UHGV virus genome: UHGV-1366123
Source of the DNA: a virus
Length of the DNA stretch: 64,000 nt
Strand: one strand, 5' to 3'
Shown here one piece after another: positions 17,401 to 63,835 of this stretch (within the stretch, counting starts at the first letter, position 1; each line of letters begins with the position of its first letter). The notes beneath the pieces were generated by a model. That model was not told where the DNA came from. It did no database searches and saw only the letters and a program-made list of their open reading frames with translations. The translations under genes were made by a program, and so were the position numbers.

Positions 17401-17495
17401 ATTATCGTGAAAGATCCTCACGGATCAATCAGACAAGAATCGTCATTATCCATCATCAATAACCACCGAAAGGTAAAAACAAAAGAACAGAACTT

Positions 17496-17987
17496 ATGAA
17501 AATGGTAGGCAACAACACGTACTACTTCAATTCCAAAGAAGGTGTTACACCAGCAGATCATGCTGTTAAGTACGACTACGGCAAGGCAGTATCAGATACC
17601 TTCTACGGTGATTACGACATGGCTGAAGCTCGCCTTGAAATCGAGAATCCCAAATCTCTTGGTGAATACCTCGAGAATATCGAAGGTCACTATGTTGAAG
17701 GTGTAAGCAACTGGCAGGAAGCGCACAAGTACCTCATCGATCTTGTGCAAGCAATGCTCGTGGAACTGGTGAAAACAACACCATCCTTCAACAACGTCAG
17801 AGAATACTCTGCTGTCATCAACGAGAGCTATGCTGACGGCTCTTTTGTTGACTATTCAGTGTCATATTGGCCAGAAAATGAAGAGGTCAACATCTACCTT
17901 GAAGCAAGTAACAACCTCAAGGGAATAGCTTTGAGTAGAAGCGAACTCGAAAAAATGCTAATCATCGAAGCCGTTGATCTTGAATAA
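17496..17987 (+). CDS. hypothetical protein (163 aa) flanked by TGACA repeat arrays
   Basis: ORF between two operator/iteron-like arrays. Confidence 0.5.
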   Translation: MKMVGNNTYYFNSKEGVTPADHAVKYDYGKAVSDTFYGDYDMAEARLEIENPKSLGEYLENIEGHYVEGVSNWQEAHKYLIDLVQAMLVELVKTTPSFNNVREYSAVINESYADGSFVDYSVSYWPENEEVNIYLEASNNLKGIALSRSELEKMLIIEAVDLE

Positions 17988-18016
17988 TGATCAATAACTA
18001 AAAAAGATAAAGATGA

Positions 18017-18055
18017 AAGCCCACCTCGACGCTCATATGCCGAGGTGGGCTTTTT
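18017..18055 (+). terminator. Terminator aaagcccacctcg...cgaggtgggcttttt
   Basis: 13-bp stem plus T5. Confidence 0.65.
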
Positions 18056-18061
18056 GCTTTT

Positions 18062-18240
18062 CAATATAACGACAGACATGACAGACATGACAGACATGAC
18101 AGACATGACAGACATGACACGGAATATGACAGACATGACAGACATGACACGGAATATGACAACTGACATCTTTGTCATGTCAGAATATGACACGTGGCAT
18201 CTTTGTCATGTCAGAATATGACACGTGGCATGACAAAGAT
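18062..18240. repeat. Tandem array: (gacagacat)x5, gacacggaatat, (gacagacat)x2, gacacggaatat, then a 36-bp direct repeat x2 (catctttgtcatgtcagaatatgacacgtggcat)
   Basis: Counted directly from the sequence; non-coding. Confidence 0.8.
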
Positions 18241-18333
18241 GTTAAAGGATGTTATGGCATATGACACTTTGTAATACAAGATGTTACAAAGTGTTAAAGA
18301 ATATATGACAAGACATATGACAACTGACAAATC

Positions 18334-18375
18334 TGTCATGTCTTTGAAACTCTGGCACGATTTTTGTTATAATTT
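18334..18375 (+). promoter_or_regulatory. ATGACAAATCTGTCAT palindrome (second copy) plus box TGGCACGATTTTTGTTATAAT
   Basis: Near-identical duplicate of the 17354/17376 elements, upstream of ORFs 18442 and 18807. Confidence 0.45.
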
Positions 18376-18441
18376 CTATGTGAAGATTTTCACACAAGCT
18401 AATCAAATCAGTTCAACAAATCAAATCACAAATCAGTCATC

Positions 18442-20684: not shown

Positions 20685-21881
20685 ATGGAAGCAAATCTCA
20701 AGATTTTCGCATCTGTCATTGATTCAAAGACCAAGGAACAGATCGATTCAATCGTTTCCCGAGAGCCATATTCGTCAGAAAGAGTGAGAATAATGCCAGA
20801 TGTTCATGCAGGTCGAGGATGTGTTATTGGCTTCACATCAACAACAACTCAAGGGAAGGTCAATCCTCATCTTGTCGGAAATGACATAGGCTGTGGAATG
20901 ACAATAGTCAAGCTCGGGAAGATCGATATTGACTACAAGGATCTCAATGGTTTCGTAGATTTGATCGCAAAGAAGGGTGTGCAATCTAACACCCCATTTG
21001 GCGGATTCCTACACGATTTCATGAAGTTTTATGGGATACTGATGTCATCATTACGATGCAATGTAAGTCCAGATGAACTTCAGAAGATCTTCGGCACTTT
21101 CGGCACTCTTGGAGGTGGTAATCACTTCATAGAGATCGGGAAGTCAGAATCGGGCGATCTTTATCTTGTGATACATAGCGGATCTCGTCGTCTTGGTAAT
21201 CACGTCTACAAGTACTACGTGTCCAAGAACTTTGACTATACCAAGAAGTCGAAGTCAGAGAAGATCAAGGCGATGATTTCGGAAATGAAGAAGAATGGTC
21301 TTCACGCACAAATCGAGGAACGTGTAAAGGAAATGCGATCAAGTGAAGAATCCACTGACATTCTCCACGAATCGTTACTTTATGACTATCTCCACGATAT
21401 GGGCGTTGCAGTCGAATTTGCTATTCTCAGTCGCATGTATATGGCAATGTCAATTTGTGAACACCTCGGTCTGAAAATCGACAACACGAAGATTGAGCAT
21501 TGTGTTCATAACTACATCGACGATCACGGTATCATTCGAAAGGGTGCATGTTCCGCTTACAAAGATCAACGTGTTGTAATTCCTATCAACATGCGTGACG
21601 GCATCATAATTGGTCGTGGACTTGGAAATCCAGATTGGAACTACTCTGCACCACATGGAGCAGGTCGTGTGATGTCAAGGACAGAAGCAAAGAACAAGCT
21701 TACTCTTGATGAACTCCAGAAGTCAATGGAAGGTGTAAACACATGGTCACTTTCCGAAGATGTGATAGATGAATCACCTTCTGCTTATAAGAAACTTGAA
21801 GATATTCTTCCATGGCTCTCGGAAACAGTCAATGTGGAAGGCATCTTAAAGCCAGTTTATAACTACAAAATAGCTGAATAA
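20685..21881 (+). CDS. rtcB: RtcB-family RNA ligase (398 aa)
   Basis: MPDVHAGRG, GNDIGCGM, GGGNHFIE, HSGSRRLG, NYSAPHGAGR match the RtcB metal/GTP-binding signature. Confidence 0.85.
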   Translation: MEANLKIFASVIDSKTKEQIDSIVSREPYSSERVRIMPDVHAGRGCVIGFTSTTTQGKVNPHLVGNDIGCGMTIVKLGKIDIDYKDLNGFVDLIAKKGVQSNTPFGGFLHDFMKFYGILMSSLRCNVSPDELQKIFGTFGTLGGGNHFIEIGKSESGDLYLVIHSGSRRLGNHVYKYYVSKNFDYTKKSKSEKIKAMISEMKKNGLHAQIEERVKEMRSSEESTDILHESLLYDYLHDMGVAVEFAILSRMYMAMSICEHLGLKIDNTKIEHCVHNYIDDHGIIRKGACSAYKDQRVVIPINMRDGIIIGRGLGNPDWNYSAPHGAGRVMSRTEAKNKLTLDELQKSMEGVNTWSLSEDVIDESPSAYKKLEDILPWLSETVNVEGILKPVYNYKIAE

Positions 21882-27254: not shown

Positions 27255-27336
27255 AAGAAGGGTACTTTCCTTGCAGTCGAAGATGCTCAAAGGTATGAAA
27301 ACAACAGAAGATGTCTTCGAGTGCAAGGAAAGTACC
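27255..27336. repeat. Palindrome-pair module (caagaagggtactttccttg ... gcaaggaaagtacc)
   Basis: Two GTAC palindromes about 50 bp apart just after the TMP stop. Confidence 0.65.
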
Positions 27337-27665
27337 ACGGAAAAACTCGAAAAGTACATAAATCAAAAATCCAAAAGAATAATGGTGGGAAATCGTTGGT
27401 TTAGACAGGTGGTTATCAATGCAACAATGTTCGTCATGTGCAGTTGCTTTATAACGTTTATGATAGTTTCAGTGATGTCATTCTTATCTTCCAAATCCAT
27501 AACTTTTTACGATAGTAGAAGCGGACAAGACACGATAACTCTGGTTGATACGATATACGTTCAAAGCCCAGACACAACAGTGGCGATGGACACTGTTGTG
27601 AGGAACATGGAAATAAACAATGACAATGTTGTAAACGATTGAAAAATTGGAAACACAAAGCAGGT

Positions 27666-35693: not shown

Positions 35694-35830
35694 AAACCCG
35701 CTATTTTTTAACATCAATATAAAGAGAGAGCCTTGTGTGGACTAGTAACAAAAACTACCCATACAAGGCTCTCGAGTGTATTTCCATTGCGCTCTTTTCT
35801 TTCAAGATTATGAAAACACGATGGAACATC

Positions 35831-35965
35831 TTCGAGCGCAAGGAAAGTACCTCTCTTTGATTTAAGCTTTCGAACACACTTCCCTTGCATTCGAAACTAT
35901 TCAAGAATATGAAAATAGCGGAAAATGGGTCAGAGTTCAAGGAAAGTACCTCTCTCGAATTAGAA
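35831..35965. repeat. Composite ~110-bp module: GTAC palindrome, TTCAAGAATATGAAAATAGCGGAAA, GTAC palindrome (copy A)
   Basis: Near-identical modules at 41722-41825 and 42163-42270. Confidence 0.7.
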
Positions 35966-39753: not shown

Positions 39754-40458
39754 TTATTTTCTCTTTCTGAAAGATATCTTCTTGTCGAACCCATGACCGA
39801 CGATCTTCTGTTCATCGGTCATCTTCACTTCAACACCGTCTTTGATTTTCGAGGAGAGGAAGTTTTGGATCTTGATGAACATCTCCTCTGGAGGAACAAT
39901 CCCACCGAAGTTGATGCACTTCAAGAGTGGATTTTTACAAGTGAAGTAACTTTCAAATCCAAATCTGGCCACCTTCGGGACTATCTCGGACGCTGATATT
40001 TCGAACAGACATCTGAACATGTCGTCGTAGTCTATACGCTCATTTCCAAAACCGTATTTTCTACCGTGAGTGATCATATAAGACATGAACATAGAGAAAA
40101 CGGTATGGGCGTTGTCAATGTTCAGTAAGAACGAGACACTGTCAGAGAGTTTCTCCTTTTCATCGATCTCCTTTGTGCAGATGAGAGAAAGAGAACGTAT
40201 GTCCTTGTGATAGAAACTCAATCTTTGGAAAGGGTGCTCCCCTCTTAAAGAATCTCTCTCGGGATCAACATCAACTCTGAGAAGATACCATGTTGTGGCA
40301 ACTTCTACAAGAAAATAGGCAAGATTATCATGACAAGAAAAACGAACATCTTCGTGCTGTAAATTGAAAGCGTGCCTATCAAACACGATCTTCCTATCTA
40401 CACCATAAACGCCTTGGATGTAGTCGTAGTAGTCTTTGTTCGTGTCAAGGATTAACAT
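39754..40458 (-). CDS. hypothetical protein (234 aa)
   Basis: ORF in minus-strand 3-gene cassette. Confidence 0.55.
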   Translation of the reverse strand: MLILDTNKDYYDYIQGVYGVDRKIVFDRHAFNLQHEDVRFSCHDNLAYFLVEVATTWYLLRVDVDPERDSLRGEHPFQRLSFYHKDIRSLSLICTKEIDEKEKLSDSVSFLLNIDNAHTVFSMFMSYMITHGRKYGFGNERIDYDDMFRCLFEISASEIVPKVARFGFESYFTCKNPLLKCINFGGIVPPEEMFIKIQNFLSSKIKDGVEVKMTDEQKIVGHGFDKKISFRKRK

Positions 40459-40985
40459 ACGTCGAAACTGTGAGCGTAGAATTTTTCGATTGTTGTTGCC
40501 GTATCGATCTTCACATGATCATAACCGAGATCTTTCATCTTCTGATCAAAGTTTTCAAAGAGCTTGTCGTCATTCTCATCTCTGGAAGTGGTATCTTGAG
40601 ATGTATCACGAATCTGTCTTCTTAGGATTGTGACTGTCTTTTCACAGACAAGTTCCGCAATTGTTATCTTTGAACGAAGATTTTGGGGGATATTCTCGAG
40701 ACCAGTTGGTGAAGTGATGAAGAAGTCACAATCTCTGAATTCTTGAAAAGTAGTTCCGTAATATTCTCCTTGGAATTCCATGAACTGGATGAACACACTA
40801 TTATTCACTAATCTCACGAATTCCTCCTTGGAAACAAAGTGATAATCTTTACCGTCTATTTCACCATCTCTTGGTTTTCTTGTAGTATGACCTATTGCTG
40901 GTTTGTATCCAAGAGTTGTAAAAACATCTAAGAAGTGATTCTTACCAACTGCAGATTTACCAACGAAAGCTATCTTCTTCATCAC
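40452..40985 (-). CDS. gmk: guanylate kinase-like nucleoside monophosphate kinase (177 aa)
   Basis: P-loop VGKSAVGKNH and signature GHTTRKPRDGEIDGKDYHFVSKEEF (TTRxPRxGExDGxDYxFVS). Confidence 0.75.
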   Translation of the reverse strand: MMKKIAFVGKSAVGKNHFLDVFTTLGYKPAIGHTTRKPRDGEIDGKDYHFVSKEEFVRLVNNSVFIQFMEFQGEYYGTTFQEFRDCDFFITSPTGLENIPQNLRSKITIAELVCEKTVTILRRQIRDTSQDTTSRDENDDKLFENFDQKMKDLGYDHVKIDTATTIEKFYAHSFDVC

Positions 40986-40995: not shown

Positions 40996-41661
40996 TTAGA
41001 AGTTTAAGAACCAGTGAATTGATCTTGCAGAATCGATCAGACCATCCAGATTTCTTACTGATTCTTCTGATTTTTCAATGACTTTCTCGTTTGGCATCTT
41101 ATATTCCAAAGATGGGTAAGGATTTTTATAGAAGACAGAAGGATTGAAGAATGTGTAAAGAAGAATCTCTTCACGGATCATCTTGTAAACGTTCATTATT
41201 TCCTCTGGAGATTTTGAAGAGAGATCGTGAACAACAGTTATGTCTCGCATATCAAGAATCTTCATCTTGTTCCGTGTCTTTATAGAAAACTGCTTATAGA
41301 ACACTGGATCGGATTCCACAATGTAATAGTCTTCACAAAAGAGACCGTCACGAATAAACGGAATCGTTTCCTCGTGATTCTCAGTTTTAATACCTTCGTC
41401 GTTGATTATCATATCTTGATATGAAACCACCAAATCACCCCTTCGAGAGTATAAGTCAAGATCGATATTTTCAATCCTTGCTTGTCTACCTTCGATGATT
41501 ATGAAGATATCGTGGTTCAAGACCATATTTCTGAATTGTTCTAATGATTTCATTGTCTTCTTTGTATTCTTATGGAAATCCGACGAATCTACTTCATACG
41601 TCTTATAATGAGCAGAAAGTTGTTGTTTTTGTTCAGAAGATCGGTGGAAATGGGAAGACAA
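40996..41661 (-). CDS. hypothetical protein (221 aa)
   Basis: ORF. Confidence 0.55.
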   Translation of the reverse strand: MSSHFHRSSEQKQQLSAHYKTYEVDSSDFHKNTKKTMKSLEQFRNMVLNHDIFIIIEGRQARIENIDLDLYSRRGDLVVSYQDMIINDEGIKTENHEETIPFIRDGLFCEDYYIVESDPVFYKQFSIKTRNKMKILDMRDITVVHDLSSKSPEEIMNVYKMIREEILLYTFFNPSVFYKNPYPSLEYKMPNEKVIEKSEESVRNLDGLIDSARSIHWFLNF

Positions 41662-42956
41662 TGACTAACAGTGAAGACAATCGACCATAATGAAAAACAA
41701 TGACTAAAAATGGTCGAATTAAAGGAAGGTACTTTCCTTGTCCTCGAAGTGACTCAAGAATATGAAAATAGCGGAAACTATACTCAAGCTCAAGGAAAGT
41801 ACCTTCCTGTAATCAGAAGAGGTATTCTGTAAGACTATGGGCTATCGTCGGGAGACAATGGACTATTTCGAAGGATTATGAGAGGATAATCAAAGACTAT
41901 GGAAAGACAATGGCTGATTATTGAAAGACAATGGCTGATTATTGAAAGACTATCGATCATAATCAAAGACAATGAAGGATTGTCGTCTTTGTGTCTTCCT
42001 TGTCTTCAAACTTATCAAATGGGGTGAAAGTAGCTCCAAGTATCTTCAAGTTCAAGGAAAGTACCTTCTTGTAATCAGAAGAGTACTTTTGTCCAATGAT
42101 GGGTTGATAATGAAAGACAATGATGATTATCAAAGGACTATTGAAAGACTATCGACTGTTTTCTTGGTACTTTCCTTGTCCTCGAAGCTATTCAAGAATA
42201 TGAAAATAGCGGAAAGTGTATCAGAATGCAAGGAAAGTACCTTCCTGTAATCAGAAGAGTATTTTTGAACAATTATGGGTTATTGTCGGAAGACAGTAGA
42301 TTATTTCGAATGATTATCAAAGACTATGAAAAGACGATGACTATGAAAAGACAGTCAATCATAATCGAAAGACAATGGACGATTATTGATTAATCATTGA
42401 AGACTTTGAAGGATTGTGGAATGACTATGAAGACAATGGACGATTGTTGAAAAATTCTCAAAAGACTATGAAGGATCATTGAAAGACTATGACGATTGTT
42501 GAAAATTCTCAAAGACTATGAAAAATTCTCAAAGACTTGGATTCTTGGACTAATAGTCAGACTAATTCTTGGAGATTATTCGGCTCAGTTGTCGACAAAC
42601 TGCGTGCTTATTCGTGTGTATTCCCGTGTGTATTCCCGAGTGTATACTCGTATACGCATGCGGTATTTCAAATTATCTGGAAAAGTAAATGCGAAGCATT
42701 TACAACTGGTTTGGAGAACAAACTATGCACGCTAGTGCATAGGTTTCTTCCAAACCATACATTGAGCGCAGAAATATCTTTATTTCTCAGATTAAAAATC
42801 TCCAGTTTAAACGATTGGTACCGCCAGCGTGTTAGGTGACACGCACGTAAAACTGTAGGAATTCCTGCGCTCACGTATGAAACTTTAAAAAACGTACACG
42901 TAAAACTTTAAAAAGATCCAACAATTAACATTCTTTAACATAACCTATCACCTCTC
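41662..42956. repeat. 1.3-kb non-coding repeat region: two ~450-bp tandem units, each a palindrome-pair module followed by an AAGAC(T/A)ATG(G/A) iteron array, then CGTGTGTATTCC direct repeats and palindromes ctatgcacgctagtgcatag, ggtttggagaa/ttcttccaaacc
   Basis: Iteron spacings 11, 21, 21, 20 bp counted directly; no credible ORF. Confidence 0.75.
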
Positions 42957-44273
42957 TTGATTATAGGAATTGTGAATAGACATCATCCGACATCAACTTC
43001 ATCTACTCATCTACTCATCTACTCATCAACTGATCAATTAATCAGACAACTCTACAACGAATTCCAACAAATGATCCTTGAGATAGAACTTAACCACTCA
43101 TCCTTGAAGAAGGGACAGAATGTTACGGAAGAGGACATTCTTATGGAAATATCTCGACTTGAGAGAGAAGCAAGTTATCAGTCCACAATTAACAAAGTCT
43201 CGAAAGTTGCTCTCAATTCAATCTATGGTGTTCTTGGTTATCACTCATTTATCCTTTACGACAGAGAAATTGCAAGATCGGTTTCGGAGCAATCTTCTCA
43301 CGTGATCCGTTACACCATTCTCTTCTTCAATAGGTATTTCCAACAGAGATTCCCAAATCATAGGGAACTACACGCAAAGATGGGGATTACAAAGTGTGAT
43401 CCGATCGATTTCAATGCGGTGAACTATGCTGACACTGATTCCGTGTTTATCCGTTACAAGGACATCATGGACAAGACCGATTACAAGGGGACTCTCGAGG
43501 AATTCGTCTTTGATATCGGTTCGTATGATCTCAATGATTGTGTCAAAGATATGCTCGAAGGCTATATTCGAAAGTTCAACGGATTCCAACAGAAGATCGA
43601 TGGACAACGTTCAATGAAGCTTGCTTTTGAAATGATCTGTCATAATGTCTTGTGGACATCGAAGAAGAAGTACATCAAGAATATCTCTTGGGAAGAAGGT
43701 GTTTATTTCAAGCCACTTGAAAACGTAGAAGTTAAAGGTCTCGACATTAACAAGAGTTCAACGCCAAAGTTTGTTCGAGAACTTCTCCGTGAGACAGTCC
43801 ACTACATCTTGCAACATAGAGAACTCAACCTTCGAGATTTCATCGACCACGTCAAGATGCAAAAATCAAAGTTCGAAAGTGCAAACGTGGAAGACGTTGC
43901 AATCTCTCAGAGAGTTAATGGTTATGAGAAATATGTGATAACTGCAAAAGATGGTGTCTTCGAATACGTCAAAGGTGTAACAATTCAGATCAGAGCTTCG
44001 AGTGTTTATAACGCAGAACTTGCAAAATCGAAGTACAAGCACAAATATCAACAGATCAGATCGGGGATGAAGATTCAGTACTACTATTCAACAGATCCTC
44101 GTAGTGATGTTTTCGCATTTGTCAACGGTGATCCTTGCTATGAGTTCCTTTATCCAATCGATTATTCTAAGCAGTTCGAAATGCTTTATCTTTCACCACT
44201 TAACAAGATAATCACATCGATTGGTGTACAAGCACTGCCTGTTTCATTGATCGCTTTCGATCCACTTTGGTAA
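42957..44273 (+). CDS. family B DNA polymerase, C-terminal (palm/thumb) portion only; likely start ATG 43071
   Basis: Motif B KVALNSIYGVLG, motif C YADTDSVFI, KKKY motif; no exonuclease domain or motif A in-frame upstream; 42957 is a TTG ORF-opening and the first 38 codons are a low-complexity tandem 9-bp repeat. Confidence 0.75.
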   Translation: MIIGIVNRHHPTSTSSTHLLIYSSTDQLIRQLYNEFQQMILEIELNHSSLKKGQNVTEEDILMEISRLEREASYQSTINKVSKVALNSIYGVLGYHSFILYDREIARSVSEQSSHVIRYTILFFNRYFQQRFPNHRELHAKMGITKCDPIDFNAVNYADTDSVFIRYKDIMDKTDYKGTLEEFVFDIGSYDLNDCVKDMLEGYIRKFNGFQQKIDGQRSMKLAFEMICHNVLWTSKKKYIKNISWEEGVYFKPLENVEVKGLDINKSSTPKFVRELLRETVHYILQHRELNLRDFIDHVKMQKSKFESANVEDVAISQRVNGYEKYVITAKDGVFEYVKGVTIQIRASSVYNAELAKSKYKHKYQQIRSGMKIQYYYSTDPRSDVFAFVNGDPCYEFLYPIDYSKQFEMLYLSPLNKIITSIGVQALPVSLIAFDPLW

Positions 44274-46809: not shown

Positions 46810-48213
46810 ATGAACATCTTCGAAGCATTCAACGAAACGAGAACGACGAATGGCGACAGAGCTTATAAGAGGTACATCGGAAATCCTTATGTCGATTTCT
46901 TGTTCAGACTTCAAAAGATCCGTGAAATCGCAAAGTACAAGGGACTTGCAGAAGTGGAGAAACTGATAATAGTCGATTATCCCGAGTTCCTTGAGAAGAG
47001 TGAGTTCAACCGCTTCTTCTCAATGTACATCAGAGATCCTCGTATGGGGATTGGTGAAAGAGAAATCGGTCGTGTTCTCTTGAAAATTCAGAACATTTCG
47101 ATCGATGATGTCATCGAAATCGGTCGTGCCGACGATATTCTCTTCACTCATTCCCCAAAAGAAGTCGTGGGTTATATCAAGGAAGCTATGGACAACGATT
47201 CCATTCGTGGCAACTATGAACTTCTGAAAAAGTGGCTTCCACGTGAGAGATCCAAGAAGTTCAAGATCATCAGAAACGAACTTCGTAGACAGAAGATTTC
47301 GAAGACAATCTACAGAGGATGGTGCGCATCACCCATGACTGTTGAAGCAGTCAGATCACGTGGTGAATTCCCAGATGATTACTCACATGTTCCTTCACTT
47401 TCTATGCTTCGACATAAGAAGGAATTCTTCAAGGATGAAAACTTCAAGAAGTATCTCGAGGAACTCAAGTCTGGGAAAACCAAGATCAATCAGTCCGTTT
47501 CTACACCATACGACATCTTGAGATCATATCGAAACACCGCCTTCAGTGGCTTTGATTATCGTTATACTGCATATGACGGAAAGGTGAATCCCAGTGAGAA
47601 GGGAATGGAACACGACACGTTCTATACAGAAGCTTTCAAGGCTTTGGGTTCGATGAACTTCGGCAAGATCATCCCAATCATCGATGGTTCTGGATCAATG
47701 TTCGACAGATACGACTCGATAGGTAAGGCTCGTTCAATTGGTCACTACGTTGCTCGCCATTCAGATTATCTTCCAAATCACTTCATCGTCTTCTCGGACG
47801 ATTCTCGGATTATGAAGTTGACTAAGGATGAAGACTTCTCCTATGTTCGGGATATGGCGATCATGGAATCGTTTGGTGACTGTACTAACACGAACTTTGA
47901 AGCAGTTTTACGTAATCTGAACAACGTGACAGCAGATCTTCCCGATTATGTCCTTGTTCTCAGTGATATGCAGTTTGACGATTCTTATGATAGAAACGAA
48001 ACACATCTTGATACGCTCAATCAGAAGGGTGTGAAGATGATCTGGTGGAATCTCTCAGTGGACAACGTCACATTACCGACTGTAAGCAAAGATGGGAACG
48101 TCTTCGTCAGTGGTTATTCACCTCAGATTCTGTCGATGCTTTCTGGAGAGTTCGATGCGGAATCCTACGTAACAAAGCTCATCGAAGACTATAAGAAAAA
48201 GAGAAGTAGATAG
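46810..48213 (+). CDS. vWA-domain protein with N-terminal TROVE/DUF2828-like region (467 aa); Ro60-like architecture
   Basis: MIDAS motif IIPIIDGSGSM, downstream TNTNFEAVL and VLVLSDMQFDD typical of vWA. Confidence 0.6.
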   Translation: MNIFEAFNETRTTNGDRAYKRYIGNPYVDFLFRLQKIREIAKYKGLAEVEKLIIVDYPEFLEKSEFNRFFSMYIRDPRMGIGEREIGRVLLKIQNISIDDVIEIGRADDILFTHSPKEVVGYIKEAMDNDSIRGNYELLKKWLPRERSKKFKIIRNELRRQKISKTIYRGWCASPMTVEAVRSRGEFPDDYSHVPSLSMLRHKKEFFKDENFKKYLEELKSGKTKINQSVSTPYDILRSYRNTAFSGFDYRYTAYDGKVNPSEKGMEHDTFYTEAFKALGSMNFGKIIPIIDGSGSMFDRYDSIGKARSIGHYVARHSDYLPNHFIVFSDDSRIMKLTKDEDFSYVRDMAIMESFGDCTNTNFEAVLRNLNNVTADLPDYVLVLSDMQFDDSYDRNETHLDTLNQKGVKMIWWNLSVDNVTLPTVSKDGNVFVSGYSPQILSMLSGEFDAESYVTKLIEDYKKKRSR

Positions 48214-48242: not shown

Positions 48243-48277
48243 AGACCTCACCTTCGATATAAGAAAGGTGAGGTCTT
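48243..48277 (+). terminator. Stem-loop agacctcacctt...aaggtgaggtct
   Basis: 12-bp stem. Confidence 0.5.
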
Positions 48278-48339
48278 AACATATAAGAACAATAACAATC
48301 ATCAACAATAACAATCAAAGACAATAACAATCAAAGACA

Positions 48340-49125
48340 ATGCAAACTTATCTCGATTTGCTCAAGTACGTTCTTGAAAATGGAACAGAAAGAACTGACA
48401 GAACTGGAACTGGAACAATCTCCGTGTTTGGTCATCAAGTGGAATATGACGTAAGTGAAAAGTTCCCAATACTCACCACGAAGAGAATCCACATGAGAAG
48501 TGTCATTATGGAACTTGCTTGGATGCTCAAAGGTGATACCAACGTGAAGTTCTTAAGAGACAATGGTGTGACGATCTGGGATGAATGGGCAGATGAAAAC
48601 GGAGATCTCGGAAAGATCTACGGAAAGCAATGGAGAGATTTCGGAGGGATTGATCAAATCAAGGATATCATCGACCAAATCAAGAACAACCCAGATTCAC
48701 GAAGAATAATCGTCTCGGCTTGGAATCCTGCAGAACTCTCGGAAATGGCACTTCCTCCTTGTCATTGCTTCTTCCAGTTCTACGTCGAAGGTGACCGACT
48801 ATCCTTGAAGCTTTATCAAAGATCTGCTGATCTCTTCTTGGGTGTTCCATTTAACCTTGCACAATACTCACTCTTGCTTTACATTGTTGCAAAGATCTGT
48901 GGAAAGAAACCTCATCGTTTTATCCACTCGTTTGGAGATCTTCATATCTACAAGAATCACTTGGATCAAGTAAAGCTCCAACTATCGAGAAAACCATACG
49001 AACTCGCAGAGGTAAAAATCGTGGGAGATATCGACATTGATAATATCTCCGCAAATCTCATCGATCAAATCGAAATCAAGAACTACGTTCATCATCCCAC
49101 AATCAAGGCGGATGTGAGTGTTTAA
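48340..49125 (+). CDS. thyA: thymidylate synthase
   Basis: Near full-length identity pattern to ThyA: DRTGTGT, catalytic [22 protein letters not shown]. Confidence 0.95.
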
Positions 49126-49140
49126 AAACTCAAGCAAGCT

Positions 49141-50136
49141 ATGCAGAAAAACTCGGAACAATGCAGAACAATGCAGAAAAAATTCGGAGCAATGTGGAAA
49201 AAACTGAAGGTGGAATTCGTCGCATATGTCGGCAAGTCCTTGTGTGTCAACGATTATACGAATCCGTTCACAGATGAGAAGTACAGAGAATCACTGAGAA
49301 AGTTGATAAATGACACTCGTGAAGGTGCGATTATTCTTATGGACGGAGAGTACTTCGAAATGATGGAAAGATCAAACTTTAGAGTTCCGTCGATTGTTCT
49401 CTTTGATTTTCAACACAAAGACACCAAAGATACGAAGTTCATCTGTTCATACAGTCAACTTTGTGATTTCCTTCGTGGGAGAAACGAGAAGGTCTTCGTT
49501 ATAGGTGGATACGACACATGGGCATCGCTTGTTCAGTACGTCTCCAAAATCCACTTCCTCGTCACTGATGAGAAATGGAACGAGGAAATGACAAGACCAT
49601 TCTTGGATGATGTTCATAAAGTGTGTAAGATAACAAACTACTCAGAATTCCCTAACGGAATAATCCACCAAGAACGTGAATTTGCAGACAATGTTGTGAT
49701 TTGCAACAGTTATGTTTCTAAAGACAAAGGATGTGAACTTTACTGTTGGGATGTTCTTTCACATGTGAATTCTGAAGGTGAACCTGTAAACAGAATACTT
49801 TCGAATGGTGTATCGACAATCGTCGGAGGAGGTGATACGATTTCGATCGTTACAGATTTCAAGATGTACAGAATACCGCCCACAACTGATATCCGTGTTG
49901 TGGAAAATCCTCGTTTCCGTTCGCTTGGTGTTGTTATGCAGTCGTGTAAAATCTCTGGTGGCGACATTATCATTTCTTTTACCAACAACTCACCACACCG
50001 TGTTATGTTGGACTATAAGAAAGTGGTTGCTAATATTCACATAATCGGAGACTACAAACTCATAGGTTGTAATAACGATTTCTCAGAGAATATGGAAACC
50101 AGCAAATGGGGAACTAAACTGATCAAACACTCATAA
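49141..50136 (+). CDS. degenerate DHFR-like domain fused to dUTPase-like beta-barrel domain (paralog 1, 331 aa)
   Basis: GAIILMDGEYFE...VPSIVLF and KVFVIGGYDTWASL resemble DHFR; C-terminal VTDFKMYRIPPTT...SGGDIIISF..VMLDYKKVVANIHII aligns with paralogs. Confidence 0.55.
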   Translation: MQKNSEQCRTMQKKFGAMWKKLKVEFVAYVGKSLCVNDYTNPFTDEKYRESLRKLINDTREGAIILMDGEYFEMMERSNFRVPSIVLFDFQHKDTKDTKFICSYSQLCDFLRGRNEKVFVIGGYDTWASLVQYVSKIHFLVTDEKWNEEMTRPFLDDVHKVCKITNYSEFPNGIIHQEREFADNVVICNSYVSKDKGCELYCWDVLSHVNSEGEPVNRILSNGVSTIVGGGDTISIVTDFKMYRIPPTTDIRVVENPRFRSLGVVMQSCKISGGDIIISFTNNSPHRVMLDYKKVVANIHIIGDYKLIGCNNDFSENMETSKWGTKLIKHS

Positions 50137-50155
50137 GAACAATCACAAACAAAAG

Positions 50156-51214
50156 ATGAAGAAGAACAAGACCGAAATCGAAATGATCCTATTTGTCAAT
50201 GACAAAGGCAAGACAGTCAACGCCCAGAAGTTGTTATCTTCACCCTCCGAAAGTGATCTTCGAGACTATATCGGAAAGATTACAACTGGGAACATCATCG
50301 TCTTTGATGAGGACACGTGTTCTACACTTATCGCTCCATTACCAAACAGAATCTGTGTTGTAATTACCCAGAACAAGGACTTCAATCGTGAAGGGTTTGT
50401 TCGTGTAGAATCTATCCGAGATTTCATCGACATGCTCGGTACGAAGTTCGACAGATATCGTGATGTTTACGTAATGGTCGACAACATTCACATCGCAAGA
50501 AGCTTCATGGGTCATGTCGATAGAGTGAAGATGGTGGAAGTCAAAGGATCAAAGAACCACGACAGATACGAACTCTCTGATGTTCCTTACAAGACAATCA
50601 CTGATATTCGTCGATCTTCGAACGTTGTCGGTGAATACTCTCTCAATGATCTCGTAAAAATCATTGATTATGAGTTTAAAGACAACGTCTTCATGTGCAC
50701 AGCAAGTGTTGATGGCTTTGGATGTTGTGGTGTCTGTGCACGAGAACCAAGAATCCATGTCGACAGCTTTGGTGAAACTGTGAGAAGAAAGTCGGACTGT
50801 CGTGAATCCATAGTCCTTCACAAAGGTGATAGAGTTTTCATGAAGACTGATATCGAGATTTACAGAATTCCCAAGAACGTTTATGTCGATATCAAGACAA
50901 TCTTACATGGCTTTATCTGTAACGGAATCTCTGTGGAATCGTCGAGTATCGCTGACGGTGTCGTCTGTGTTGGACTGATAAACATGGGATCGAAGCCTGT
51001 CACCATTCACAAGGATCAAACAATTGCCATAATGGCGGTCAGAGGTGATCATGAGTTCTTGAAAGTAGAGCATAAAGACTTCCCACGTGAAAAAGTCGAT
51101 GGGTGGAATAACTTCGAACGTGAAGACGAAGATGAAAATCGTCGACCACTAAAGGATGAGTGTTGTGTGGGTAGTATAATGGAACGTTGTGAAGACAGCG
51201 ATTATGACTTTTAA
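50156..51214 (+). CDS. degenerate DHFR-like domain fused to dUTPase-like domain (paralog 2, 352 aa)
   Basis: GNIIVFDEDTCSTLIAPLPNRICVVITQN resembles DHFR; C-terminal KTDIEIYRIPKN...IADGVVCVGLINMGSKPVTIHKDQTIAIMAV resembles dUTPase motifs III-IV. Confidence 0.55.
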   Translation: MKKNKTEIEMILFVNDKGKTVNAQKLLSSPSESDLRDYIGKITTGNIIVFDEDTCSTLIAPLPNRICVVITQNKDFNREGFVRVESIRDFIDMLGTKFDRYRDVYVMVDNIHIARSFMGHVDRVKMVEVKGSKNHDRYELSDVPYKTITDIRRSSNVVGEYSLNDLVKIIDYEFKDNVFMCTASVDGFGCCGVCAREPRIHVDSFGETVRRKSDCRESIVLHKGDRVFMKTDIEIYRIPKNVYVDIKTILHGFICNGISVESSSIADGVVCVGLINMGSKPVTIHKDQTIAIMAVRGDHEFLKVEHKDFPREKVDGWNNFEREDEDENRRPLKDECCVGSIMERCEDSDYDF

Positions 51215-51227
51215 AGAATAATCGATT

Positions 51228-52097
51228 ATGCCAGTAAAGTTTATAGCTTGTACAGATAAGAACTTCGCTGTTGGAAACGATAGCAAACTTCTGTTCAGAA
51301 TTCGAGAAGATATGAAGCTGTTCCGTGAGCTGACGATGGGAAGCATTGTCGTCATGGGCAGGAAGACCTTCGAAGAGATCGGAAAGCCACTTGAAGGTAG
51401 AATAAACATTGTTCTATCAAGATCGGACATTTCTATTGGAGGTGTTCACGTTTTCCGATCGATGGAAGAATTGAAAGCTTTCTGCATGACATCTGAAAAT
51501 CGACAGAAAGATGTCTTTGTGATTGGTGGTGCAGAAATGTGGGAACTCTTTAGAAGATATGTTTCACAGATCCACCTCACGAAAGTCCCAGATGACTGTC
51601 CCGAATACGACACCGTCTTCCCTCATGATCTCTTGACGGCTTTCACACTCGTTCATAAGAATCAGATCGGCATCTATGAAAAGAACTATCAACCGATTGT
51701 CCATGAAGTCTATGACAGACAGAAGGATGTGACGGTTATGAACCGCAAGAATGATAAGCTCGTACCTTTGAGATTTGTCGATGTTCTTGAATATGTCGGT
51801 GATAAACCATCAACGATTCTTAAAGACGATTCAGTGAAGATACTTGCAAATGACAGAATCGCTGTAAAAACTGATCTTCGTGTTTATGAACTTCCTTTAG
51901 ACACGCTTGTCAGTGTGGATGTCGTTCCATCAGTTTTTATGGACAACGGACTGATGATTGCAGGTTGGGATATCTTTGATGATGACTTTATCGTTTACAT
52001 GACACTGATTGGAAAGAAGTCGATTTCACTGAAACGTGGTGATATCATAGCAGACGTTAATTTCTATTCTCGTCATCCTCTGATTTACGCCCCATAA
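51228..52097 (+). CDS. folA: dihydrofolate reductase fused to C-terminal dUTPase-like domain (paralog 3, 289 aa)
   Basis: IVVMGRKTFEEIGKPLEGRINIVLSR and DVFVIGGAEMWELF...IHLTKVPDDCPEYDTVFP are canonical DHFR; C-terminal KTDLRVYELPLDT...GWDIFDDDFIVYMTLIGKKSISLKRGDIIADV. Confidence 0.85.
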   Translation: MPVKFIACTDKNFAVGNDSKLLFRIREDMKLFRELTMGSIVVMGRKTFEEIGKPLEGRINIVLSRSDISIGGVHVFRSMEELKAFCMTSENRQKDVFVIGGAEMWELFRRYVSQIHLTKVPDDCPEYDTVFPHDLLTAFTLVHKNQIGIYEKNYQPIVHEVYDRQKDVTVMNRKNDKLVPLRFVDVLEYVGDKPSTILKDDSVKILANDRIAVKTDLRVYELPLDTLVSVDVVPSVFMDNGLMIAGWDIFDDDFIVYMTLIGKKSISLKRGDIIADVNFYSRHPLIYAP

Positions 52098-52327: not shown

Positions 52328-52573
52328 GGAAGATACTCTCCTTGGCTCTCCTTGGTATTTCCCTTGATTTCTGAATCCATTGGAGGTGTGAAAGCCTTCA
52401 GAAATGGTTTCGAGGTCAAGGGAAATACGTCTCTGAAAATCTCTGAATATCCGTGAACCACTCCCCATTTCCGTATGATAGGAAATATGGCAGGTCGATT
52501 GTAAGACAAACCAACCAATAAACAATAATCAACATCAACATTCGACAGACAACAATCAATCAATCAAGCAAAA

Positions 52574-53302
52574 ATGGACATTATCAAAAACCTCGGTTAT
52601 AACCAACATGGGATACTGGACAACATCCAGAAGCTGTATCTCGACGGAAAGCCGATCGATTGTGACATCACTTATTCCAAAGGTGCTTTCTATGGAAAGT
52701 TCAAAGTGAAGGAAGCAGATGGAGAAACTCGTGAAATCACAATCGAACAACCTCGACTAAAGTTTGATGTTTTCCCACTTTCGGAAGATGTTCAGAAGAT
52801 AGAACCCTTAAAGCCACTTCCACTCGAAGATCAATCGATCGAATCAATGATGATCGACCTACCGTTTATCGTCAGACCAACAAAGCCAGACACGTCGGTG
52901 ACTGATGAAACTGGGTCGAAGATGTTCAACCGATTCCAAGGTTTTCACACTCCAGACGACATGTATGAAACGTACTGGTTCTGGATCAACGAAGCTTATC
53001 GTGTGCTGAAGGTCGGTGGTACGCTTCTCTTCAAGACACAGAACACGATTTATGGCGGTATCAACCACAATACTGAGTTTTTCTCGTTCATGTGTGCCGA
53101 GAGAGCAGGGTTTGTCACCGAAGACACCTTCGTTCTTGGTGCAAAGTCGAGAATGATCTCACCATTTATGACCAAGCAGTTGCACGCTCGAAAGTTCACA
53201 TCGACTTTCTTCATCTTCAAGAAGCACAAATCCACAAAACATAAGAAGTTCAACTATTGGTCATTAATCCCAAAGCTTGAAGAATCTCATCATCATCAAT
53301 AA
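52574..53302 (+). CDS. possible truncated amino-methyltransferase-like protein (242 aa)
   Basis: IDLPFIV then YWFWINEAYRVLKVGGTLLFKTQ resembles the DPPY...RVLKpgG region of N6/N4 MTases; no AdoMet FxGxG motif seen. Confidence 0.3.
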   Translation: MDIIKNLGYNQHGILDNIQKLYLDGKPIDCDITYSKGAFYGKFKVKEADGETREITIEQPRLKFDVFPLSEDVQKIEPLKPLPLEDQSIESMMIDLPFIVRPTKPDTSVTDETGSKMFNRFQGFHTPDDMYETYWFWINEAYRVLKVGGTLLFKTQNTIYGGINHNTEFFSFMCAERAGFVTEDTFVLGAKSRMISPFMTKQLHARKFTSTFFIFKKHKSTKHKKFNYWSLIPKLEESHHHQ

Positions 53303-57317: not shown

Positions 57318-57581
57318 ATGACTAAGAAAGAATTCATCACAGCTCTCGCAGAGCAGACTGGTGCAACTAAGACGCAGGTAGAAGCCATCATCGGTGCTTA
57401 TCACAAGACTATCATCGAAAGTCTTAAGAAGGATGAGCCAGTGACCTTCGTTGGCTTCGGTACGTACTCATCCAGAGTTCGCCCAGAGCGTGAAGCCTTC
57501 AAGCCTGGTACTAAGGAAAAGATGACAGTACCTGCAAAGAAGGTCGGTAAGTTCAAGATGTCAAAGTCTGTAGAACTTTAG
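57318..57581 (+). CDS. hup: HU/IHF-family DNA-binding protein (87 aa)
   Basis: MTKKEFITALAEQTGATKTQVEAII...VTFVGFGTYSSRVRPEREAFKPGTKEKMTVPAKKVGKFKMSK matches the HU fold signature. Confidence 0.85.
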   Translation: MTKKEFITALAEQTGATKTQVEAIIGAYHKTIIESLKKDEPVTFVGFGTYSSRVRPEREAFKPGTKEKMTVPAKKVGKFKMSKSVEL

Positions 57582-57774: not shown

Positions 57775-59205
57775 ATGAAAGCCAAGAAGCATCACGTGGG
57801 CATGTTTGACCACATGTTCCAAAAGGGAAAGATCACATTCTTGCTGGATGGTTACTCCGCAGGTTCATCTGGGAAGGGCAAATGTGAATCTCTGATCGTA
57901 AAGAACACGTCGTTTGGATCTAAAGACAGTGATAAGCGTCTTGCAGTCTGTACCACAAACTCTGCAAATGCGTCACATTGGGTTTATGATGACGGCAAGA
58001 AGATGATGTTCGAAGTCCTCCCTTCATCGGCTTACCTGTACGAAAAGCTCGAGTTCGTGGCTATCGGTCACGGTGCGTCGTTCTCCGTTGAACGTCTCTT
58101 CGAAGAAATCAAGATGAGCGGTCTTCCCCTCGATAAGCTCTTCATCCACCCCAAGGCAGGGATCATCACCAAGATCGACGAAGACTACGAAAAGGGTCTT
58201 TGTGATATCGACGGCAACTATTCGTCACAAGACCACGACGGCACAATTGCAGGTGGTTCAACTTGCTCTGGATCTGGTGCAGTTCGTGCAAAGAAGGTCG
58301 TTCGAAACAAGACGGTGACTTATGCTTACCAAGTCCCAGAACTCAAGCAGTTCATCTGTGATGTCGAAAAGCGTCTTATGACGTTTATGATCAATGGAGG
58401 ATCAGTCCTTCTGCAGATTGGTCAAGGTTTCCCACTTTCGTATGGTCTCGGCTATAACAAGCAGAACTCAACAAGTCGAAATGTGACAATCAGTGCAGCT
58501 TTGGATGATATGAATCTTCCTCCATTCTTCGCAGGTGACGTTATCTTGAATGGTAGAACTTATCCGATCAAGATCAACAACAAGAAGTATCGCCTTATTG
58601 GTGGGAAGCCAGTTGTCCGACTTCACAAGAACTCGGAATCGACGCTCAAGTACTACGCTCATAAGCATCTGTTCGACTTCATCGAAGGAGATGATCACGT
58701 TTCTATCGTCACACGTAAGGAATTCATCAACTTCTACGAAATGCGTGAGTTCCCCTACCTTGAATACGAAGTCATCGAATCGTTCAGTGGTACTGGTTAT
58801 TCTCCAATCTGGAACGAAGAAAGTCACCAGCGAGAAATCACGTGGGAAGATGTCGAAAAGAACTATGGGAAGACAATCCCAGATGATGTAAAATGCACGT
58901 CACTTACCAAGCTCCCCCGAAGAGTCTTTGAGTTCGATAAGAGCCTTCTGCACGACGGTATTCTCTACAATCTCTCTCCAAATGGCAAAACTCATATTGT
59001 CATCAACTTCGTCAACTGGGTAGATGGTGAAATGGACGGAGAACGTGAGAAGATCACCGAAAAGGTCGAAGATTGGCTCTCCAAGAACATGTTCGGCGAA
59101 ATCGACACTATCAACAAGCTCGTAGGTGGTAATGATGAAAAGGTCGTGCTTTCTGTACTCGGGACTGGTCGTGAATCCGACGACTTTGTCGCTGTAGAAC
59201 AGTAA
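57775..59205 (+). CDS. adenylosuccinate synthetase-family enzyme, divergent (PurA/PurZ-like, 476 aa)
   Basis: P-loop GSSGKGK aligns with [30 protein letters not shown] aligns with [32 protein letters not shown] with [18 protein letters not shown] with GAQGTLLDIDHG. Confidence 0.55.
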   Translation: [476 protein letters not shown]

Positions 59206-60198: not shown

Positions 60199-61470
60199 AT
60201 GTCAAGGAACGTATCTCCTCTCGATCACAGGTATGCCGATGTCATACAGAACATGTCACACATCTTCAATTCTGAAAGATACTATAAGACGATGTGGAAT
60301 GTCGAAGTCGAATATCTTCTTTACTTCTTAAAAGAGATAGCAAACATAGAAGTAAACGAAGACATCATCAGAAAAAACTGCAAGTTCGACAGTTCTGTCT
60401 ACAACGAGATTCTTGAAGAGGAAAATGTAACCAAGCACGATGTCAAGGCAGTTATCAATGTCCTACAGAGAAAAACGTCGGGTTCGGTTTATGTCCATTT
60501 CGGACTGACTTCACAAGACATAGTTTCTCTGTCAATGTCTATTCTCATGCAAGAAGCAATGGAAGTCATTGATCGTTCGGTAAACTATGTCGAAGGAATC
60601 CTTGAAAATCTTCATAGAGAGACAAGGGGCATTTGGTCTCTATCAAAGACTCATGGACAATCTGCAGTTCCTCATCTTTTGAAAGATGACGTTTATAAAT
60701 GGCGGTATGATGTCTTGAAGTTTAGACAACGTACAAACAACTATTCAGTTGTCAAATTCTCTGGTGCTGTCGGTAACAACTTCGCAATTTCGAGACTTTT
60801 CGACATAGATGTTCGGAGAGTTGCAGAACTTATGGATTCGTTCGTCAAGAAATTCGGACGGTTCACTGTTAGTGGAGAAGAAGCGACACAAACCGACAGA
60901 TGGGAATCGTTCTGTGAAAGATTCTCTGATTGGAATCTGGCCATTTCAAGAATCATTAGCGACATTCAACAGATTTGGCAAATGTGCTCGGATGGTTATT
61001 TCAAACTGAAGGTAGACGAAGGTTATTGTGGATCTTCCGCTATGCCCCACAAGGTCAACCCCATCAAGTTTGAAAATGCGGAAGGATGCTTCTGTAGATG
61101 TCAGAAAGACTTCGAGTTTTACATTAATAAGTTATCGAAATCAAGAATGCATCGTGATCTTTCAGATTCAGTGGTCATAAGAATGATCCCCGAGACGTTG
61201 TCTTATCTTTATCTCGGATTCTCTTCGTTTGCAAATGGCTTGAAGTCGCTCGAGGTGAACGAGGAGAAGATAAAAGATGATCTCGAGGAGAACTATCAAG
61301 TGTTCTCTGAAATCGTACAGCTCTATCTAAAGATGAAGGGAGATGAGGACGCATATGAAGAATCAAAGCGTGTGTTTAGAGGAAGCCAGATGACACTCTA
61401 CGACTTCAAGAAAGCTCTTAAAGCTCTGAACATTGAGTATGATGAAATCAAGAAGTTCATAGAACTTTAG
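60199..61470 (+). CDS. purB: adenylosuccinate lyase
   Basis: N-terminal SPLDHRY signature and superfamily motif GSSAMPHKVNP. Confidence 0.8.
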   Translation: MSRNVSPLDHRYADVIQNMSHIFNSERYYKTMWNVEVEYLLYFLKEIANIEVNEDIIRKNCKFDSSVYNEILEEENVTKHDVKAVINVLQRKTSGSVYVHFGLTSQDIVSLSMSILMQEAMEVIDRSVNYVEGILENLHRETRGIWSLSKTHGQSAVPHLLKDDVYKWRYDVLKFRQRTNNYSVVKFSGAVGNNFAISRLFDIDVRRVAELMDSFVKKFGRFTVSGEEATQTDRWESFCERFSDWNLAISRIISDIQQIWQMCSDGYFKLKVDEGYCGSSAMPHKVNPIKFENAEGCFCRCQKDFEFYINKLSKSRMHRDLSDSVVIRMIPETLSYLYLGFSSFANGLKSLEVNEEKIKDDLEENYQVFSEIVQLYLKMKGDEDAYEESKRVFRGSQMTLYDFKKALKALNIEYDEIKKFIEL

Positions 61471-63364: not shown

Positions 63365-63835
63365 TTGATAACAATAAAAATGGATGAAAAAGTAAAAGAA
63401 TACGAGCAATTTGTCGTTTCTTGCTTCAACGAGAATCCTACAAATAACAAGGTTCTCGACTTCATTCACATGACAATGGCACTTATGTCAGAATCTGGTG
63501 AATTCGCTGATATAGTCAAGAAGGCGGTGTTCCATTCTAAGGAGATCTCGAAGGTTGATCTCGTAGACGAACTCGGTGATGTTCTGTTCTACTTCATGAA
63601 CATTTGTCATTTCCTTGGTGTCACGATTGATGATGTCATGGAAGCAAATCTCATAAAAATCCGTGAAAGATACCCCGAAGGTCGTGGCAAGAACTACAAC
63701 TTCGGTACACGTAATAAGGCAGAAGAAAAGAAGAGAATAGAACAATTCTTGATGAAGATAAAGCAGGATGTTTCAATCGATATCAACATCAGCCAAATCA
63801 ATCCTCATCATCAGTCTCAACACATAGGAAAGTAA
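63365..63835 (+). CDS. MazG-like nucleoside triphosphate pyrophosphohydrolase (156 aa)
   Basis: ALMSESGEFADIVKK (EExGE) and ELGDVLFYFMNICHFLGVTIDDVMEANLIKIRERY match the all-alpha MazG signature. Confidence 0.8.
   Translation: MITIKMDEKVKEYEQFVVSCFNENPTNNKVLDFIHMTMALMSESGEFADIVKKAVFHSKEISKVDLVDELGDVLFYFMNICHFLGVTIDDVMEANLIKIRERYPEGRGKNYNFGTRNKAEEKKRIEQFLMKIKQDVSIDINISQINPHHQSQHIGK

Follow-up and report, generated by a model that had tools for sequence, protein, structure and literature searches.

Phased direct-repeat arrays and a covarying hairpin block upstream of a split polymerase gene: a possible replication origin in a T4-like phage

The virus genome UHGV-1366123, of which a stretch of 64,000 nucleotides (64 kb, referred to as the window) was analyzed here, contains a 1,517-bp non-coding gap (positions 41554-43070, locus A) just before the gene for the C-terminal half of a family-B polymerase (PolB-C). 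This gap holds a whole composite element, built of hairpin modules, arrays of short AAGAC-type direct repeats, a block of hairpins and a group of A-rich repeats. The repeats are genuine, selected, of the same orientation and helically phased, and it is very likely that the arrays function as protein-binding sites on DNA. The composite as a whole is present in two inverted copies per genome of ~150 kb. By analogy with phage T4, we tentatively favor the interpretation that it could be an origin of replication of the promoter-plus-iteron type, of which oriE is the example; the binding of a protein, transcription through the element and any role in replication are what we infer from the sequence.

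The original prediction for this region, which was made from the sequence alone, described AAGACnATG repeats at a pitch of 11/21/21/20 bp, and this pattern is borne out. The motif AAGACNATG matches 24 times in the window, compared to 3.93 +/- 1.89 matches expected, and none of 100 shuffled sequences reaches 24; 15 of the 24 copies fall within 41551-42520, and 14 of these 15 are on the + strand. With the relaxed core A[AG]GA[CT], 27 units are found in 41640-42560, all on the same strand. When the 171 units of nine element copies are combined, the consensus is the 12-bp motif sRAAGACWATGr. Array A1 (41831-41985, + strand) comprises ~11 units with the core A[AG]GA[CT]nAT at spacings of 10/11/21/21/20/10 bp, including 2.5 copies of the 21-bp unit TATTGAAAGACAATGGCTGAT, and exhibits a vector strength of 0.85 at a period of 10.5 bp. 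Array A2 (42111-42153, + strand) is limited to three units (AAGACAATG, AGGACTATT and AAGACTATC), which are 20 and 11 bp apart. Array A3 (42290-42540, + strand; ~14 units) is phased only locally, in runs, with spacings of 10/11/20/21 bp and some irregular ones of 17 and 29-32 bp. A proximal mini-array (41637-41705, + strand), at a distance of 85-150 bp from where the divergent gene on the left starts and kept in close relatives, contains 3-4 AAGAC-type units (AAGATCGGT, AAGACAATG, AAGACAATC, AAAACAATG) that are 18-21 bp apart. In the nine element copies from both loci taken together, 63% of the successive spacings equal 10, 11, 20, 21, 22, 31, 32 or 42 bp, vs ~20% if the spacings were uniform; as these copies are related to each other, the figure of 63% is not a probability. 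Three or more direct repeats of the same orientation in helical phase, one of the features of iteron-type origins, are present. The pitch of 10.5 bp suggests a sequence-specific protein that would bind to one face of duplex DNA.

Comparison of close relatives reveals that the motif is kept while the arrays gain or lose whole units, which is typical of binding-site arrays. The indels in the arrays have lengths of 10, 11, 21 and 23 nt, and the expansions include (AAGACA)n, (GAAAGACTAT)9 and a 19-bp unit present six times. These indels, together with single-base indels in the hairpin block, eliminate coding repeats or mini-ORFs (short open reading frames made of ATG-N9-TGA units). No RNA structure was detected in the arrays (z = +0.6 and -1.2). 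A purine-rich R-loop signal was also rejected, as the purine content of the arrays (60-62%) is unremarkable in this genome. The same holds true for a RegA-like translational operator, proposed from copies of the motif at the starts of the divergent gene and of thyA: even close relatives fail to conserve the copy at thyA. Finally, the apparent inverted GTCTT iterons at 41985-42006 are in fact the decayed left arm of a hairpin module.

The tandem organization seen in the original prediction is real; however, instead of two units of ~450 bp we find three, each composed of a module and an array. A 174-nt module-plus-array unit is present in three copies, the first starting at 41728, the second 262 bp further on at 41990 and the third another 176 bp on at 42166 (438 bp in sum). 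In module M1 (41718-41813) the arms at 41718-41747 and 41784-41813 are 87% complementary, each ends in the near-palindrome AAGGAAAGTACCTTCCTT, and the loop carries TATGAAAATAGCGGAAA; the z-score of the RNA fold is -6.1 for the + strand and -8.0 for the - strand. The degenerate module M2 (41985-42075) has the decayed left arm GTCTTCCTTGTCTTC, which explains the three "inverted GTCTT" copies mentioned above, and the intact right arm CAAGGAAAGTACCTTCTTG at 42053-42071, after which TACTTTTG is found at 42084-42091. In module M3 (42163-42251) the arms at 42166-42190 and 42229-42251 are complementary at 13/13 positions, and TATTTTTG follows at 42260-42267. The octamers after M2 and M3 are the only two intergenic TAnnTTTG sequences on the + strand of the window and are partly conserved in relatives; no -33 element was found beside them, and a scan for sigma-70 promoters and terminators returned no more sites than in shuffled sequences.

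The modules are not confined to locus A. A search of the window for the core AAGGAAAGTACCTTCCTT gives 20 matches, counted on both strands, compared to 0.02 expected; they fall at 13 sites, all of them intergenic: 107, 5114/5184, 17289, 27255, 35840/35939, four in the region discussed here, 52326 and 60134. Other copies of the hairpin module span 5114-5201, 17220-17306, 27255-27340 and 35780-35957. Full modules are long inverted repeats that enclose a 40-50-nt loop with TATGAAAAyAGCG, and their fold z-scores go down to -8. Two sets of modules are located between convergent genes, which argues that the modules are not simply promoters; on the other hand, in a relative whose PolB-C is 43% identical, one module arm (L011:7266-7300) precedes a gene by ~45 nt. 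Thus, the palindrome-pair modules do precede the arrays, as originally noticed, but with their dispersal over 13 sites they are not a specific feature of an origin. We read them as a dispersed regulatory cassette that may resemble the PeSL (early promoter plus stem-loop) cassettes of T4-type phages. A second repeat-rich non-coding region of the window (17300-18400) has a different motif, (GACAGACAT)n at a 9-bp pitch, accompanied by TGACA...TGTCA palindromes; downstream of these repeats there are two promoter-like sequences that are nearly identical, TGGTACGATCTTTGTTATAAT and TGGCACGATTTTTGTTATAAT, and a hairpin module precedes one of them.

The hairpins noted downstream of the arrays are real as well. 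The interval 42570-42960 folds at -113.8 kcal/mol with z = -6.4 on the + strand, vs z = -3.65 on the - strand. The hairpin block proper (42580-42875, + strand) is nearly invariant among close relatives and consists of 2.8 copies of CGTGTGTATTCC at 42613-42645 (counted as three in the original prediction), the hairpin GTAAATGC-GAA-GCATTTAC at 42685-42703, a long hairpin at 42707-42757, and a multi-hairpin domain at 42763-42873 closed by GAGCGCAG/CTGCGCTC. In the alignment of ten locus A and four locus B copies of the block there are 51 consensus pairs, nine of which exhibit compensatory double changes, e.g. AAATGC/GCATTT vs AAATAC/GTATTT, or the whole inner stem of the long hairpin. Single-base indels between clades indicate that the block is non-coding, and judging from the covariation it is a selected structure. 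The consensus energy is -39.5 kcal/mol on the + strand vs -33.2 kcal/mol on the - strand, and in helices predicted on both strands the G:T wobbles outnumber the A:C mismatches by ~9 to 2. This is weak evidence for RNA or a single strand of + polarity as the form in which the block functions, since the main hairpins are perfect palindromes. A known RNA family could be discarded: the Rfam covariance models gave no credible match at E <= 10 in 41400-43200, nor in the blocks from locus B or from distant lineages. A 17-base probe from the block, used to search viral contigs, found real matches only in the six known relatives.

The block is followed by A-rich repeats with the consensus ACGTrwAAACTTTAAAAAA (42877-42915, + strand; 2-3 copies ~23 bp apart in locus A), in a segment that carries AAACTTTAAAAA repeats and represents the only candidate unwinding element. 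The AT-rich sequence anticipated at the origin proved weak: 42880-42970 is the least stable duplex of the region, at +2.7 standard deviations (SD), but the 15 least stable 60-mers of the window all lie elsewhere. Further downstream, two copies of TTAACAT (42925-42931 and 42936-42942, + strand) are followed by TTGATTATAGGAAT (42957-42970, + strand), which resembles the TATAAGA-type elements upstream of other genes in the rightward block and probably serves the polymerase fragment as promoter; this segment (42925-42970) is kept in L008, a relative with 77% identity. The leader repeat (TCATCTAC)n at 42991-43044 (+ strand), upstream of the ATG at 43071, varies in length in relatives. Short tandem-repeat leaders of the (CAATCA)n / (TCATCTAC)n kind are found at 42991-43044, 48276-48339 and 52540-52573, and their length varies among close relatives.

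A pattern scan for paired repeats revealed a paralogous locus B in the same genomes, outside this window. In three independent contigs of ~150 kb it is located 68-82 kb from locus A, in the opposite orientation, and its parts follow the same order: modules, AAGAC arrays, a hairpin block (~70% identical), four to five copies of the A-rich 24-bp repeats, and two TTAACAT sequences. Upstream of locus B there is a 549-amino-acid (aa) gene of unknown function with its terminator; downstream there are two reversed modules, a strong terminator-like hairpin, tRNA-Lys, a NADAR gene, more tRNAs, an EcoRI-type methylase and a TnsA-like gene. In one relative the locus A block (L110:2560-2640, compared to L169:1195-1265) has the inner stem of the locus B type in its long hairpin, which suggests gene conversion between the two inverted copies.

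All genus-level relatives have arrays at locus A. In the lineage at 77% identity the assembled part contains only scattered copies of AAGACTTTA; its contigs break at the module and the arrays have possibly been missed. Two further, more distant lineages, L108 and L213, possess a dense hairpin block beside the homologous leftward gene, and then a module before the contig end; the L108 block, the only one of the two that was folded, has z = -5.8, and the stems of L108 and L213 differ by compensatory changes. From this distribution, the hairpin block and the modules appear to be older than the arrays. Several independent assemblies end inside arrays or a module (L005:1-60, L188:1-120, L160:1-120, L008:1-20, L108:1-20, L213:1-60); the element is a recurrent assembly breakpoint, and the copy number of the array units per contig may be underestimated.

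The source genome is ~150 kb long, and the related contigs in IMG/VR and ENA measure 149,090-150,601 bp and have differing start points, which implies circularly permuted assemblies. No nucleotide similarity to isolated phages was found. At the protein level, the polymerase fragment and the portal are T4-like, with Flavobacterium phage MaF61 (33% identity) as the nearest isolate: PolB-C matches the gp43-type polymerases of T4-like cyanophages and of MaF61, a Portal_T4 portal is present in one relative, and a PHROG portal match lies within the window. By these genes, the virus appears to belong to the T4-type phages and to possess a replisome of the same type; its genome resembles those of lytic T4-like myoviruses, and neither an integrase nor plasmid-maintenance genes were found in the window. 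The gene starts in the window have no Shine-Dalgarno sequences and their leaders are A-rich, from which we conclude that the host is probably a member of Bacteroidota.

Locus A is a local point of divergent transcription. The left flank is a leftward operon of three genes, encoding a 186-aa ORFan (40996-41553, - strand; the first gene, with its start codon within a copy of AAGACAATG), guanylate kinase and a 234-aa protein. The 186-aa protein has no match in Pfam, PHROG or PDB, a profile search for its remote relatives found only three clusters among 1.8 billion representatives, and its AlphaFold model (predicted local distance difference test, pLDDT, of 31) is unusable. The right flank is a rightward block of replication and nucleotide-metabolism genes: PolB-C, thymidylate synthase, three DHFR (dihydrofolate reductase)-like genes, ribonucleotide reductase, and PurZ-like and PurB genes. 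The polymerase gene is indeed the next gene after the element; however, it is not immediately downstream of the repeats, as ~530 bp separate it from the last array, and of a split family-B polymerase it encodes (43071-44273) only the C-terminal half, which extends from motif B to the C terminus. The missing N-terminal half could be detected neither elsewhere in the 64 kb of the window nor in the 5-11 kb available around locus B. Stand-alone PolB C-halves of ~400 aa constitute a metagenomic family that extends down to 26% identity, and the same split is present in lineages at 43-77% identity. In the same block, at 48340-52097, a thymidylate-synthase-like gene is followed by three consecutive DHFR-like genes, an unusual triplication in which only the third has a strong match. 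An unlisted 87-aa ORF at 57318-57581 encodes a DNA-binding protein of the HU/IHF family (Pfam Bac_DNA_binding, E = 2e-25), with TF1 of phage SPO1 among its solved relatives; it is a possible architectural partner of the repeat elements. The window also encodes a PurA-like protein with the best solved-structure matches to 6TNH/6FM1/6FKO (deposited as adenylosuccinate synthetase, and presumably PurZ of phage PhiVC8), followed by S-2L PurZ (7ODX). Together, the genes for this PurZ-like protein (57775-59205), adenylosuccinate lyase (60199-61470), a MazG-like pyrophosphohydrolase (63365-63835) and guanylate kinase (40452-40985) suggest a genome with 2-aminoadenine (Z).

How could such an element act in replication? 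In the scenario we favor, a sequence-specific and probably phage-encoded protein would load cooperatively at the arrays, on one face of the helix, while the hairpin modules, or the promoter-like sequences in their right arms, would drive rightward transcription through or next to the coated arrays. The nucleoprotein complex, together with the downstream hairpin block and the A-rich 24-bp repeats, might then promote opening and priming, and the T4-type replisome would start leading-strand synthesis in the direction of the downstream genes. The large non-coding region beside a replication gene, at a point of divergence, corresponds to the anatomy of an iteron element, and the T4-like character of the phage, the two copies per genome, and the structured segment and A-rich repeats that flank the arrays also speak for an origin. 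T4 has several origins, the more active of which are near points of transcriptional divergence, and its oriE combines an early promoter with a cluster of evenly spaced 12-nt iteron-like repeats, conserved at syntenic positions in close relatives (PMC3016281). As T4 fires several origins, one of them with a promoter and repeats, an origin appears to be the best among the DNA-level roles for such an element in a T4-like phage.

A number of observations weigh against an origin. Of the iteron-type architecture claimed originally, the phased same-strand repeats in non-coding DNA beside a replication gene stand. No initiator was recognized near the element, where the adjacent gene is the ORFan with the unusable model, and no DnaA box (TTATCCACA with <=1 mismatch) is present on either strand of 41000-43500, which also disposes of a DnaA-dependent origin. 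The candidate unwinding element deviates by only +2.7 SD, and if the DNA carries 2-aminoadenine, as the PurZ-like gene suggests, AT-richness would not ease its melting. The GC (guanine-cytosine) skew, the subject of a check suggested with the original prediction, shows no sign change at 42 kb in the window, but in this genome the skew follows transcription. No replication genes were found among the flanking genes scanned near locus B. Among the relatives, L108 and L213 have the block and the module with no arrays in their assembled parts, so that the arrays may be a recent accessory. In the relatives at 43-56% PolB-C identity the element is absent from the region upstream of the polymerase fragment, which is preceded directly by coding sequence or a short gap, indicating that the link to the polymerase gene is recent. 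Furthermore, even in T4 the oriE iterons have not been linked to origin activity (PMC3016281).

It is tempting to consider a more specific version of the origin, to which we assign a low probability, namely RNA-primed initiation in a genome that may contain 2-aminoadenine. Transcription from the modules would run through the coated arrays into the covarying hairpin RNA, which would then form a lasting RNA-DNA hybrid at the A-rich 24-bp repeats; with the two copies inverted, forks would leave in opposite directions, each along the genes downstream of its copy. Models for such an RNA-primed start are RNA II of ColE1 and the R-loop at T4 oriF, and the two paralogs of the hairpin block in each genome would then belong to a new family of structured RNA.

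Transcription control is the main alternative, albeit one that we regard as somewhat unlikely. According to this hypothesis, a phage regulator coats the DNA downstream of promoter-bearing modules, with the AAGAC repeats as its operator- or enhancer-like sites, and switches early or middle genes off or on; the targets would be the polymerase/nucleotide block at locus A, the tRNA/accessory block at locus B, and the divergent operon of the 186-aa gene. In support, each array directly follows a module with the conserved right arm plus a CTGTAATCAGAAGAG-TAnnTTTG-like sequence, and the same arm occupies a promoter-like position, ~45 nt from the gene start, in the relative with 43% identity. Both loci head gene blocks of the early/middle type, one motif copy overlaps the divergent gene at its start, and the other repeat cluster, at 17.3-18.4 kb, is upstream of promoter-like sequences, so that the phage may use such clusters generally. 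However, 20-38 sites per locus are far above the numbers known for phage operators, some modules are located between convergent genes, a position that requires no promoter, and the polymerase fragment apparently has its own promoter-like element downstream of the whole composite. Moreover, locus B is cut off from its downstream genes by the two reversed modules and the strong terminator-like hairpin, and the AAGACAATG copy at the start of thyA is not conserved in relatives.

We give little credence to the idea that the arrays and the block form one long non-coding RNA or leader, in which an RNA-binding protein would be titrated by the repeats, acting as a sponge, and the block would be the structured core. 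The better fold on the + strand, the excess of G:T wobbles, and the compensatory changes between the paralogs and between lineages are in its favor, and the phage encodes RtcB and a Ro/TROVE-like RNA-binding protein. On the other hand, a periodicity of 10.5 nt would be meaningless for single-stranded RNA, the arrays lack RNA structure, no Rfam family matches, and the central hairpins, as perfect palindromes, are equally fit for DNA; the block may well function as RNA while the arrays act on DNA. The genes for the RtcB RNA ligase and the Ro/TROVE-like protein (DUF2828/DUF7788, "RNA-binding protein" in PHROG) are at 20685-21881 and 46810-48213, and a Y-RNA-like match was not found in the hairpin block.

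Similarly improbable is some other function in cis, such as a packaging site for the small terminase, a pause region for DNA entry as in T5, or a largely neutral slippage satellite around a dispersed repeat. The injection stop signal (iss) of T5 is also a repeat-rich untranslated region that occurs twice per genome (bioRxiv 10.1101/866236). The copy number of the arrays changes fast, with expansions of the hexamer (AAGACA)n, and several assemblies break inside arrays. However, the contigs are circularly permuted with the locus internal in most of them, leaving no fixed end here; the copies are inverted, diverged and internal rather than terminal repeats, and DnaA boxes are missing. A genome end or pac site can be dismissed given the circular permutation and the mostly internal position of the locus, the contig ends in arrays being assembly breaks. 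Neutrality is difficult to reconcile with the conservation of the motif, its orientation and its phasing across two paralogous loci and several lineages.

The alternative offered with the original prediction, a partition centromere of the parC type, adaptor-bound and moved by an actin- or tubulin-like motor, is very improbable. The contiguous 10-11-bp and 20-21-bp direct repeats do resemble parC of R1 (11-bp iterons) and of pSK41 (20-bp repeats). However, neither ParM, ParR, ParA or ParB proteins nor tubulin- or actin-like domains turned up in the scanned genes near loci A and B, the virus has the appearance of a lytic T4-like myovirus (integrase and plasmid-maintenance genes are missing from the window), and two inverted copies are untypical of a centromere.

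Other features of the window deserve a brief mention. The sequence GGTAAATAAsSAAAyrT recurs 10-20 nt upstream of the start codons of large and structural genes (those at 1238, 5978, 8494, 23402, 27772, 31574, 34119 and 36543) and is possibly the late promoter of the phage. GATC occurs 7.45 times per kb in the whole window, about twice the estimate for its base composition, and a DNA methylase-like gene is located at 52574-53302.

If the two loci are origins, they would provide the first handle on the start of replication in a deep-branching T4-like lineage whose family-B polymerase is split, whose host is probably a member of Bacteroidota and whose DNA may contain 2-aminoadenine; they would then offer an assay, the phage-dependent amplification of a cloned fragment, and a bait for the binding protein. 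Whatever the arrays do, the covarying hairpin block is a candidate for a new structured RNA or DNA element. In addition, the arrays and modules break metagenome assemblies, and knowledge of their layout will help to close genomes. The element is a good experimental lead rather than a surprise.

The resemblance to parC of R1 and pSK41 consists in contiguous 10-11-bp or 20-bp repeats that place a protein on successive turns of the helix near a promoter; the differences are that here the scanned genes include no adaptor or motor genes, the phage is of the lytic type and the copies are two and inverted. The iteron origins of lambda (ori), P1 (oriR/incA), R6K (gamma) and pSC101 have units of 17-22 bp. 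With such origins of plasmids and temperate phages our element shares direct repeats in helical phase, an adjacent A-rich segment of lower stability that has repeats of its own, and a gene start within ~100 bp of a repeat copy; it differs from them in the shorter unit (12-13 informative bp at a 10-11-bp pitch), the much greater number of units, the weak AT-rich element, and the absence of a recognized Rep/O-type initiator and of DnaA boxes. The Bacillus phage SPP1 has two distant regions, oriL and oriR, bound by the origin-binding protein G38P, with oriL within the initiator gene; here, too, the same repeated boxes occur at two distant regions of one phage genome, but no such gene is known in this phage. 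PeSL cassettes are dispersed repeats of an early promoter plus a stem-loop in T4-type phages, and our modules likewise form a dispersed intergenic repeat family, kept down to 43% PolB-C identity; the likeness covers only the modules and not the arrays, some modules are located between convergent genes, and their promoter activity is putative. The T5 injection stop signal is similarly an untranslated region, rich in repeats, inverted repeats and palindromes, with two copies per genome (bioRxiv 10.1101/866236); however, the T5 copies are identical, reside in direct terminal repeats and have eight DnaA boxes, whereas ours are internal, inverted, ~70-80% identical and free of DnaA boxes.

The parallel for the favored reading is T4 oriE, which likewise belongs to a T4-type phage and has short, evenly spaced direct repeats of the same orientation in a regulatory region. 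No RepEB or RepEA annotation appeared in the PHROG scans of the neighboring genes, a comparison that involved annotations rather than T4 sequences. The element described here differs from oriE in the far greater number of repeats (~27 per locus), in their distribution over 2-3 arrays, each behind a hairpin module, in the 300-bp covarying hairpin block that follows, and in the presence of two inverted paralogs. Iteron-like arrays as such are already known; what is new is the combination of phased short repeats, dispersed modules and a covarying block, in the form of two inverted paralogs.

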